DNA from: Candidatus Thorarchaeota archaeon
GTDB taxonomy: Archaea > Asgardarchaeota > Thorarchaeia > Thorarchaeales > Thorarchaeaceae
Direction of reading: 5' to 3'
DNA: 18,466 nt
Assembly (NCBI GenBank): GCA_048884965.1
Contig: JBHLQH010000049.1
Coordinates: 1-18,466, forward strand
Part shown: positions 14,701 to 17,404 of the stretch, piece by piece
Layout of the letters: each line of letters opens with the position of its first letter
Numbering within the stretch: position 1 is the stretch's first letter
Program-made: the position numbers and the translations under genes
The notes under the pieces: model-generated
The model's input: the letters and a program-made list of their open reading frames with translations, nothing else
What the model was told of the DNA's origin: nothing
The model's database searches: none

Positions 14701-15990
14701 CTATTCGATATCATCGAAGGTGAGAATTTGCATTCCTCTTGGACGGTTTTCGATGTCTGCCATGGCCGCGCCAATCAACAATGCTGTGCTCCTTTTCGAT
14801 GCTGCGTCTACCAGACGCTGAGTCACAACGCCATCAAAGACAATTGCTGCAACGGTTTCCTGAGCCTCCAATGTTTTGGCCAACTCTGCGACCCCACATT
14901 CAATGATGACTTTCTTATCCGGGCCAAAGAGTATTGCTTTGAATGATTCCTTGATTTCGCTGATTTTCGCAAGATATTCCTTATCCACTTCTGGAACTGC
15001 CCGTCTTGCTGGTTGACTTCTAGCAGGTAGTTGGCTTCTAGCAGGCAACGATGGAAGAGGTTCCTCATTCTGTTCGATGGGTTTTCTTGTTTCTCGTCTT
15101 GGTCGACGTAGTGGCTTTTTCTTCTTGGTAGTGGTGGGGGCTCTTCTGTCACTGACCAATGCAAGAGCCTGTTCCGCGGGTATCCGAGTCTGGAGTGCCT
15201 TGGTGATCTCTCGGCGTGAGAGGTCCTCTACCTCTTTGCCTTCGGGAGCCCTTGCAATATAGTCCACTCTGGCTACCTGCAATAGCTCTCTTAGAATCAG
15301 ATCGCCACCGCGATCGCCATCCAGAAATGCCACGATGGTCTTCTTAGCGTCACCAGTAAGGTCTGCAATAGACTTCGAGATATGAGTCCCTTCTACCGCA
15401 ACCGTATTGTTTATTCCATTCTTCATCAGGTTGATGATGTCTGCACGGCCCTCAACAATGATTATCTCGGGCTCCTCGTTCAAACTAGGTCCTGCAGGTA
15501 ACTTGTCAGGTCCATATTTCCCAACTGATTTCTTGCTTGCCTTCGATACCGCATCCGTAATCTCTTCAGTACCGGGCGAGATATCCTCTTCCCAGCCTTT
15601 GAGAATGCTGATAGCCCTGCTGACGACCTTTCGTCGCTTGGCGCCGCGAATGTCCTCTAATTTCAAGAGGGTCACTTTTGCGGTGCAGGGTCCAACGCGA
15701 TCAACTGTTTCTAATGAAGCTGCGAGGATAGCAGTGGCGGTCTTGTTGAGTGATACAGGTATCACTATCTCACCTCTACTATTGCCACCCTCTGATTTTA
15801 TTGCAATCTGAATCCTGCCAATACGACCGGTCTTCTGAAGCTCTCGTAAGTCGAGATCCTCTCCCAATAGTCCTTCTGTCTGTCCAAAGATAGCACCAAC
15901 GACATCGGGCTGTTCGACGAAACCGTCGATCTCTATTTTAGCTCTAATAACGTATTTTGCAGTGCTTGTGTCAAAGTCTCCTGTTCCTAT
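14701..15990 (-). CDS. dnaG: Archaeal DnaG (TOPRIM; exosome-associated), start extended to ATA at 15990
   Basis: IIIVEGRAD, DGDRGG, APEGKEVE, FDGVVTQRL; conserved AKYVIRAKIEIDGFVEQPDVVGAIFGQTEGLLG lies in frame upstream of the track's TTG 15867. Confidence 0.93.
   Translation of the reverse strand: MGTGDFDTSTAKYVIRAKIEIDGFVEQPDVVGAIFGQTEGLLGEDLDLRELQKTGRIGRIQIAIKSEGGNSRGEIVIPVSLNKTATAILAASLETVDRVGPCTAKVTLLKLEDIRGAKRRKVVSRAISILKGWEEDISPGTEEITDAVSKASKKSVGKYGPDKLPAGPSLNEEPEIIIVEGRADIINLMKNGINNTVAVEGTHISKSIADLTGDAKKTIVAFLDGDRGGDLILRELLQVARVDYIARAPEGKEVEDLSRREITKALQTRIPAEQALALVSDRRAPTTTKKKKPLRRPRRETRKPIEQNEEPLPSLPARSQLPARSQPARRAVPEVDKEYLAKISEIKESFKAILFGPDKKVIIECGVAELAKTLEAQETVAAIVFDGVVTQRLVDAASKRSTALLIGAAMADIENRPRGMQILTFDDIE
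15013..15048 (-). repeat. 18-bp tandem repeat encoding LPARSQ-LPARSQ in the DnaG linker
   Basis: TTGACTTCTAGCAGGTAG / TTGGCTTCTAGCAGGCAA. Confidence 0.8.
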
Positions 15991-16217
15991 TTCTACGCAC
16001 GTCTCCTATGATTGCCGCGCGTTCCCGTACCATTCTCCGGGTTTTCAGTAACATCTATTCCCACTAGGCCGGAGCCAAATCTAATTCTTGGTCTGTTCAA
16101 TTCCCTCTGCACTACACATAGAGTATTGCCCTACTTTTTTGAATGATAATCGTGAAGATGTGACATGTGAATGATAAGAGTCCACTATACTACAAGGCGG
16201 TTTCCAATTGAACCCAA

Positions 16218-16272
16218 ATGATTGATACATGGGATTCCGCGGCGATGTGATATGATGAACTTGTAATTCTGA
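16218..16272 (+). ncRNA. Candidate box C/D sRNA
   Basis: ATGATTGA (C-like) ... GCGA (D'-like) ... ATGATGA (C') ... 10 nt ... CTGA (D); 55 nt; first guide GGGATTCCGCG looks antisense to archaeal 16S CGYGGAAUCCC. Confidence 0.4.
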
Positions 16273-16393
16273 TGGCACAGTGGAGTGCTCCAGTGTGCTT
16301 CATAGTCAATTGCGGATTCATACCTTTTGAACATGTCGTTAGCGCTATAGAAAAATGAAGAGTCCGTAAGCAGAGGATTGGATGGCGCCAATT

Positions 16394-16409
16394 GAAAAGC
16401 CTGATATAG
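16394..16409 (+). promoter_or_regulatory. Putative BRE/TATA for a non-coding transcript
   Basis: GAAAAGCC-TGATATAG; same GAAAAGCC as the tRNA promoter; predicts a start near 16430. Confidence 0.5.
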
Positions 16410-16430: not shown

Positions 16431-16724
16431 GTCCGGTGATACTTACCCATTCCCGAGGGCACACTGAGTTAACTCGATGAGGTGTCGCGCAAAGAAGGGG
16501 TTACACACTGGACAGGAAGCCTGCTGAATACCAATAGGCGAAACATAACGGACTCACACAATGGGGATGATATCCTTCAGATGAGTGTCGGGTCACCCAT
16601 GGTTCGTACATTGGCAGGCAGGTCGATGTCACATCAGCCTGACACGAGACAGCTCAGTTGAGCCGGAAGGTTTTCCGATGCTGGGATTCTGGGGGTTAGT
16701 GTGTAGGGATACAGGCATCGACCA
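16431..16724 (+). ncRNA. Unidentified structured RNA, three consecutive stem-loop domains
   Basis: Closing helices 16431-16438/16506-16513, 16519-16527/16611-16619, 16621-16630/16714-16723, each with G-U pairs only on + strand; K-turn-like motif; no ORF of 60 aa or more. Confidence 0.6.
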
Positions 16725-16732
16725 CTACGTCA

Positions 16733-17404
16733 TCAGAAAGTGATTTCCTTGGAGTCACCAGGCTTCAAGATCTCGACCTTTGTTTTCCCTTTGTCAGTGA
16801 CCATTTGATAGAATTGTTTGGAGTTTGCTGCAATCAGTGGAAACGTATCATAATGCATTGGGATCGTGACCTTGGGATTTACCAGCTCGACCGCCTTCAC
16901 AGCCTCTCTAATTCCCATCACATAGTAGCTACCAATGGGCACGAAGAAGAGATCAATACCATAGAGTTCTCCAAAGAGTTTCATATCGCCAAACAGACCT
17001 GTGTCCCCTGGATGATAGAAGGTGCCGCTAGGCATCTTGACGATAAAGCCCGTGGGTGTGCCAAGGCTGCTTGAGTGGAATGCATGAACTAGGGTAATGG
17101 TGATACCAGCAACTTCTACACTGCCACCAATATTCAAGGTATGCACATGCTCAACACCATCCTGTCTGGCTTTGAGGGCCAACTCATTGATTGCGATGAA
17201 CGTTGCCCCGGTTTTCTTGCAGATTTCTATTGCCTCTTTGTAGCCATGGTCGCCATGATCATGTGTAATTAGACAGAGGTCTGCCTTGTTGACATCTTCA
17301 ACCTTGATTGGCGAAGTCGGTCCATTCAGCCATGGATCTACAAACACTGTTTTTCCATCTGCTTCTATTTTGAAGGATGCGTGTCCAAGGTATGTTACTT
17401 TCAC
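16733..17404 (-). CDS. Metal-dependent hydrolase, metallo-beta-lactamase fold (UPF0173)
   Basis: YLGHASF, VDPWL, THDHGDH, HAFHSS, YHPGDTGLF, IPMHYDTFP; GTG start after GAGGAG. Confidence 0.93.
   Translation of the reverse strand: MKVTYLGHASFKIEADGKTVFVDPWLNGPTSPIKVEDVNKADLCLITHDHGDHGYKEAIEICKKTGATFIAINELALKARQDGVEHVHTLNIGGSVEVAGITITLVHAFHSSSLGTPTGFIVKMPSGTFYHPGDTGLFGDMKLFGELYGIDLFFVPIGSYYVMGIREAVKAVELVNPKVTIPMHYDTFPLIAANSKQFYQMVTDKGKTKVEILKPGDSKEITF

Follow-up and report, generated by a model that had tools for sequence, protein, structure and literature searches.

The window analysed here, an 18,466-nucleotide stretch of contig JBHLQH010000049.1 from a Candidatus Thorarchaeota archaeon (assembly GCA_048884965.1), carries an ORF-free interval at about 16431-16723 that encodes a structured RNA of three domains on the plus strand. 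Both flanking genes lie on the minus strand: a Toprim/DnaG gene upstream and a gene for a metallo-beta-lactamase-fold hydrolase downstream. An earlier note, made from the letters of the sequence, had placed a three-domain plus-strand RNA with its own promoter in this interval, and that description is borne out by homologs, covariation and folding. The RNA, its promoter-like element and the parts of its three domains, which we refer to as motifs 1 to 3, are listed in Table 1.

Table 1. Positions in the window of the RNA, its promoter-like element and the parts of its three motifs
Feature	Position	Strand	Details
Probable H/ACA guide sRNA gene, three motifs	16431..16723	+	Placed by BLASTN bounds, covariation and RNA-library contigs; ends approximate
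Promoter-like element	16385..16408	+	GCGCCAATTG box, then TATA-like CTGATATAG (16400-16408); about 22-47 nt upstream of first helix
Motif 1	16431..16513	+	Closing stem 16431-37/16507-13; lower stem 16446-51/16495-500
Motif 1, predicted guides	5' 16452-58 (CCCGAGG); 3' 16489-94 (GCAAAG)	+	Upper stem 16459-64/16482-88
Motif 1, K-turn	UGA 16465-67; GAU-GA-G 16476-81	+	Around hairpin 16468-75; ACA 16503-05
Motif 2	16519..16619	+	Closing stem 16519-27/16611-19; lower stem 16538-44/16600-07
Motif 2, predicted pocket	5' guide 16545-53 (AACGGAC 16547-53); 3' pocket 16592-99 (ACCCA 16595-99)	+	Upper stem 16554-58/16586-91
Motif 2, K-turn	(C)AA 16559-61; GAU-GA-G 16580-85	+	Around hairpin 16562-79; ACA 16608-10
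Motif 3	16622..16722	+	Closing stem 16622-30/16714-22; lower stem 16638-40/16706-08
Motif 3, predicted pocket	5' 16641-52 (GAGAC 16646-50); 3' 16694-705 (GGUUAGU 16694-700)	+	Upper stem 16653-58/16688-93
Motif 3, K-turn	UGA 16659-61; UGG-GA-U 16682-87	+	Around hairpin 16662-81; ACA 16711-13

A conserved and expressed RNA at a fixed locus

The 4.09-Mb assembly contains a single copy of the RNA stretch, and BLASTN recovered one copy in each of 33 of the 36 genomes of the same family (Thorarchaeota), which represent 16 genera and match at 67-81% identity. The bounds of these matches are sharp and agree with the coordinates first proposed. The synteny of the locus is fixed, with dnaG divergent upstream and the hydrolase gene convergent a few bases downstream. 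Three studies provided metatranscriptomic contigs that match the RNA at 100% identity; all of them lie inside 16442-16715 and none on the flanks, and they are uninformative on its strand, its ends or its absence. We conclude that the RNA at 16431-16723 is real, expressed and conserved.

No Rfam family matched the window at gathering thresholds, and relaxing the threshold to E ≤ 10 for this region brought up only two chance matches. The model for HgcG (RF00064; gathering threshold of 77 bits) gave no match in the genome at E ≤ 10, nor in a cmscan of the region. The earlier note had also set the RNA apart from the RNAs of RNase P and SRP, rightly so: both are encoded elsewhere in the genome, RNase P RNA on contig C16 (41010-41342; 157 bits) and SRP RNA on contig C50 (11887-12197; 84.5 bits). 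The RNase P RNA gene lies 64 nt from the Cbf5 gene (41406-42356), on the same strand. The genome encodes the H/ACA proteins Cbf5 (428.7 bits), Nop10 (68.8 bits) and Gar1 (44.3 bits), all with scores above the curated cut-offs. A literature search found no papers on H/ACA RNAs of Asgard archaea. Further upstream in the window, a weak C/D-box-like match on the plus strand (16237-16298; SNORD26, 14 bits, E 9.1) has AUGAUGA and CUGA; it is conserved within the genus only and is probably a chance match.

The earlier note was right to point to an Asgard archaeon, and its promoter call also held, in that a promoter-like box with the consensus TTCGCGCCAATTGACAAnnCTAATAAC occurs at -47 to -22, at a fixed distance from the RNA, in about 50 of the 54 homologs. 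A search of the genome, including the regions upstream of other genes, found no other close match to this box, from which the transcription start of the RNA is predicted. Immediately upstream of the TATA-like CTAATAAC is a 16-nt box, (T)CGCGCCAATTGACAA, which is longer than a BRE and includes the palindrome CAATTG; it may be the site of a gene-specific regulator.

On the other side of this promoter-like element, the dnaG ORF (14701-15867, minus strand) is preceded by about 140 nt (15868-16011) that are 72-79% conserved across the family. This segment has third-position periodicity on the minus strand and can be translated in frame with dnaG. After the preceding stop, no in-frame ATG, GTG or TTG was found in 15868-16011; there is instead a conserved GGAGAC followed by an in-frame GTA here and by ATA, ATT or ATC in relatives. 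Owing to this combination of a conserved, coding-like upstream segment and no canonical in-frame start, DnaG probably starts at a non-canonical codon and is probably truncated by ORF callers.

Fold and architecture of the three motifs

Folding of the plus strand gives three domains in succession, with an energy of -106.3 kcal/mol that is better than for shuffled sequences (z -2.35); the minus strand is not better than its shuffles (z -0.41). RNAalifold detected compensatory changes in 39 of 80 pairs among 23 homologs. In a refined structure of 73 pairs, evaluated over 54 homologs, 95.5% of cells are paired, compared with 35-43% when the partners are slid. Both-sided (compensatory) changes occur in 53 of these 73 pairs, and all 12 helices are supported. 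The three closing stems read in the earlier note are part of this structure, with compensatory changes across the 54 homologs in 7/7 pairs of stem 1 (GUCCGGU/ACUGGAC), 7/9 pairs of stem 2 (GCCUGCUGA/UUGGCAGGC) and 7/9 pairs of stem 3 (GUCGAUGUC/GGCAUCGAC). Its inner helices ACUCA/UGAGU, GGGGAU/AUCCUU and CGGAA/UUCCG are likewise retained. The others that it listed (GCUCA/UGAGC, ACAU/GUGU and AGCCU/GGGUU) are paired in 46-73% of cells and clash with covarying helices.

The three domains share a common plan. A closing stem of 7-9 bp leads into a 5' loop of 7-10 nt and a short lower stem; above these come an internal loop whose bases are invariant, an upper stem of 5-6 bp and a K-turn, and on the 3' side an invariant ACA/ANA box immediately precedes the second strand of the closing stem. 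Each K-turn comprises a 5'-strand xUGA, a small hairpin as its C-stem, a three-base bulge and GA. Conservation of the K-turn G and A bases is complete or exceeds 90%, that of the pocket bases is complete or nearly so, and the two A positions of the ANA box are invariant in all three motifs. The 2n base of the K-turn of motif 2 is A in the window and G in more than 90% of homologs.

This plan revises several details of the first reading of domain 1. The CUGA...GAUGA feature that had been described as a K-loop-like tip stands as a feature, with equivalents in domains 2 and 3, and is a real K-turn; the K-loop label does not survive. The K-turn that had been placed at 16449-56/16491-501 is not conserved, and its bases belong to the lower stem and guide pocket. 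The ACA proposed at 16512-14 is not conserved either, the invariant ACA of this domain being the one given in Table 1. Because a K-turn, an ANA box and an rRNA-complementary pocket are present in all three domains, the suggestion of a multi-hairpin H/ACA-like guide is supported.

By published criteria for archaeal H/ACA motifs (PMC2377435), the upper stem measures 5-6 bp, the ANA box lies 14-15 nt from the target and a K-turn or K-loop is present. The upper stems of motifs 1, 2 and 3 are 6, 5(-6) and 6 bp in length. The stack from pocket to K-turn has 9 layers here, and Pyrococcus favours 10 (PMC4652768). The lower stems are short, at 6 bp in motif 1, 7 bp with a bulge in motif 2 and 3 bp in motif 3, where the published descriptor specifies at least 7 bp (PMC2377435). 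Each ANA box lies in an internal loop, enclosed by the closing stem, which is unusual; we found no description of closing stems or of helix-enclosed ANA boxes in the H/ACA literature examined. The closing stems probably lend stability to the short lower stems or pre-organise all three motifs, and they may compensate for the shortness of the lower stems.

A covariance model (R1) built on motifs 2 and 3 has a single full-length match in every one of the 26 Thorarchaeota genomes sampled. Beyond this family, R1 has one match per genome, with the same boxes, in 35 genomes from 18 other families of the phylum. In 23 of these more distant copies, ACA, GAUGA, GUUAGU and the closing stems persist, and compensatory changes are seen in 18/18 closing-stem pairs, in an alignment that was fitted to the R1 model and is therefore biased towards its structure. 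As judged by these alignments, the closing stems are conserved across Asgard archaea.

Where present, motif 1 (model R3) always lies immediately upstream of the other two. In five Thorarchaeota genomes that lack it at the locus, no copy was found genome-wide at E ≤ 0.01, and two relatives of the same genus have a short hairpin in its place. As motif 1 is variable, motifs 2 and 3 form the constant core, as in Haloferax. In the only sister-family genome sampled (G037, contig C13, 54343-54540), motif 1 is directly followed by a motif-3-like hairpin and no motif 2 was detected, an arrangement suggestive of hairpins being gained or lost as modules.

Predicted pairing of the pockets with large-subunit rRNA

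Because a search of the genome's own assembly found no rRNA, the LSU and SSU rRNAs of four relatives were used to search for targets. The rRNA genes of relatives have large insertions, and their SSU and LSU genes are unlinked; one SSU match (L040, from G014) is 2411 nt in length, about 900 nt over the usual length.

The guides of motif 1, GCAA(AG) and (CC)CGAGG, pair with LSU GGCUUGC-UU-CCUCGAUG (GGCUUGC-UU-CCUCGA) in a canonical fit. This site, which is equivalent to E. coli 2496 and has an ACA spacing of 15, scored best in both genomes tested. For motif 2, the proposed site is LSU UGGGU-UU(A)-GACCGUUG (E. coli 2580-2595), in which ACCCA is complementary to U2580-U2584 and AACGGAC to G2588-U2594 with one A.A mismatch (5 + 6-7 bp). 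As the guide base opposite U2585 is C, U2585 would be left unpaired as well as U2586, and U2586 lies at an ACA spacing of 15. At LSU position 2594, one relative (G010) has C for U, and opposite it only the G010 guide has G for an otherwise invariant A. This joint change in guide and rRNA is one line of independent support, from one relative, for the motif 2 target. In a different relative (G009), the LSU (L037) near E. coli 2580 departs from the conserved GAGCU right before GGGUUUAG; the insertion looks like an intron inside the motif 2 target region.

The proposed site of motif 3 is in helix 69, at ACUAACU-(A)UGA-GUCUC (E. coli 1909-1924). Here (A/G)GUUAGU matches ACUAACU (1909-1915) and GAGAC matches GUCUC (1920-1924), giving 7 + 5 bp, leaving (U)AUGA unpaired and placing U1915 and U1917 at ACA spacings of 17 and 19. 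The helix 69 match was sought after we had learned of the motif 3 target of Pab40-type guides, so the 7 + 5 bp found there amount to a genuine prediction. With an ANA-to-target spacing criterion of 14-16 nt, motifs 1 and 2 fall inside the range (15 in both) and motif 3 (17/19) falls outside. The earlier note had judged domains 2 and 3 a poor fit to H/ACA rules, a judgement that fails against documented atypical guides: the spacing of domain 2 is 15, and the 17/19 spacing and unpaired UAUG(A) of domain 3 are as in stem-loop SL2 of sR-h45 (PMC7075261).

With shuffled guides, pairing as good as that observed arose at the named site in 4-9% of trials for motif 1, 1-2% for motif 2 and 1-3% for motif 3. 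In a scan of whole rRNAs under relaxed geometry, the top score was equalled by shuffled guides in 23-34 of 60 trials, and the proposed sites of motifs 2 and 3 were not the top matches. Complementarity between pockets and rRNA, which the earlier note had suggested as a check, is present at three known sites and is not unique across the whole rRNA.

Relation to known guides and alternative readings

The guide Pab35 directs modification of P. abyssi 2549, 2672 and 2697, which are equivalent to E. coli 2457, 2580 and 2605, and these sites give an offset of 92 between P. abyssi and E. coli numbering in domain V. Pab40, Pho40, Pf7 and Afu4 are the HgcG RNAs (RF00064), H/ACA sRNAs with three motifs from Thermococcales, Archaeoglobus and Methanocaldococcus (PMC2377435, PMC4652768). 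The sites of Pab40/Pf7/Afu4 are P. abyssi 2588 (E. coli 2496), 2678 (E. coli 2586; proposed for Afu4 and Pf7) and 2016 (helix 69). HgcG and the Thorarchaeota RNA are similar in overall size and in having three H/ACA motifs in a row, every one of them with an ANA box and either a K-turn or a K-loop. They also share three LSU target sites that are identical and in the same order, those of Thorarchaeota being predicted. Unlike HgcG, which was compared by its description, the Thorarchaeota RNA has its motifs inside extra closing stems of 7-9 bp with the ANA box in an internal loop; its lower stems are shorter, and motif 1 is absent from some Thorarchaeota genomes.

In Haloferax volcanii, SL1 of sR-h45 guides the equivalent of E. 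coli 2586 at an ACA spacing of 15, and SL2 guides both helix 69 uridines from one pocket, with an unpaired UAUG and spacings of 17 and 19, a geometry that is experimentally productive (PMC7075261). Motifs 2 and 3 share their targets, order and spacings with SL1 and SL2. However, sR-h45 has no equivalent of motif 1 and has a long spacer between its stem-loops, in place of which the Thorarchaeota RNA has closing stems. With C as its guide base opposite U2585, the Thorarchaeota RNA would also leave both U2585 and U2586 unpaired. Eukaryotic H/ACA snoRNAs (yeast snR191 and human U19 for helix 69) are similar in that they direct pseudouridylation by Cbf5/dyskerin at homologous rRNA positions. They have a hairpin-hinge-hairpin-tail architecture with H and ACA boxes and without K-turns, whereas the Asgard RNA, with its K-turns, belongs to the archaeal type.

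On this evidence we identify the RNA, with a probability of roughly 0.9, as a box H/ACA guide sRNA of three motifs that is the Thorarchaeota ortholog of Pab40/Pf7/Afu4 (Rfam HgcG), motifs 2 and 3 being the counterparts of the two motifs of Haloferax sR-h45. As the RF00064 model gives no match, membership of the HgcG type is argued from architecture and targets. The RNA most likely directs Cbf5 to uridines of the LSU core for pseudouridylation. It would be transcribed from its own promoter, and each of its hairpins would be bound by L7Ae at the K-turn and by Cbf5-Nop10-Gar1 at the lower stem and ANA box. Both strands of the internal loop would then pair with LSU rRNA on either side of one uridine, which Cbf5 would convert to pseudouridine. 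The predicted targets, in E. coli numbering, are U2496 in the peptidyl-transferase ring for motif 1, U2586 or U2585 for motif 2, and U1915 and/or U1917 in helix 69 for motif 3. Protein binding, pseudouridine formation and the role of the closing stems are inferred.

The geometry of motifs 2 and 3 bears on a reading in which the RNA binds L7Ae and pairs with the rRNA core, and does not direct pseudouridylation, acting instead as a folding or processing chaperone like snR30/U17, at least through these two atypical motifs. Either 4-5 target bases must remain unpaired in both, or invariant pairs at the top of the pocket must open; motif 3 has a lower stem of only 3 bp, the ANA boxes are enclosed by closing stems, and no Rfam family matches, all of which this reading would accommodate. 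The same atypical geometry (17/19, unpaired UAUG) is nevertheless productive in SL2 of sR-h45 (PMC7075261), the ANA boxes and spacings are kept exactly as an active guide needs, and other archaea as well as eukaryotes are known to have pseudouridine at the target sites. We consider a chaperone improbable.

Another possibility, raised in the earlier note, is an undescribed class of Asgard-specific RNA that is unrelated to H/ACA and merely has K-turns. It could draw on the lack of an Rfam match and on the unusual closing stems that recur across Asgard archaea. Against it, every defining sequence feature of H/ACA is present three times, the three pockets fit the sites of a known three-motif guide in the same order, and guide and rRNA co-vary in one relative. 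A new class is very improbable and unsupported; the RNA is not a new class but a diverged three-motif H/ACA guide. Short plus-strand ORFs (16482-16661 and 16585-16743) overlap the region, but a cis-acting leader, a 3' UTR or a small protein gene is extremely unlikely, as both flanking genes are on the opposite strand, substitutions track base pairing rather than codon position, the RNA-library contigs end inside the element and the RNA has its own conserved promoter-like box.

Within the H/ACA guide reading, the closing stems could represent an Asgard-wide architectural change that alters the docking of Cbf5 or the assembly of three RNPs, and motif 2 might then guide pseudouridylation at the universally conserved U2585 and not at U2586. 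This proposal, which builds on ANA boxes locked in internal loops and on unusually short lower stems, seems to us rather unlikely, and the closing stems are otherwise a modest structural curiosity.

The identification fills an annotation gap, as Rfam is blind to this RNA and genome annotation based on Rfam would miss a conserved, stable RNA. It would mean that the closest archaeal relatives of eukaryotes keep the archaeal, K-turn-bearing type of H/ACA guide, and that the equivalents of E. coli 2496, 2586 and helix 69 would be guided by one ancient multi-hairpin RNA.
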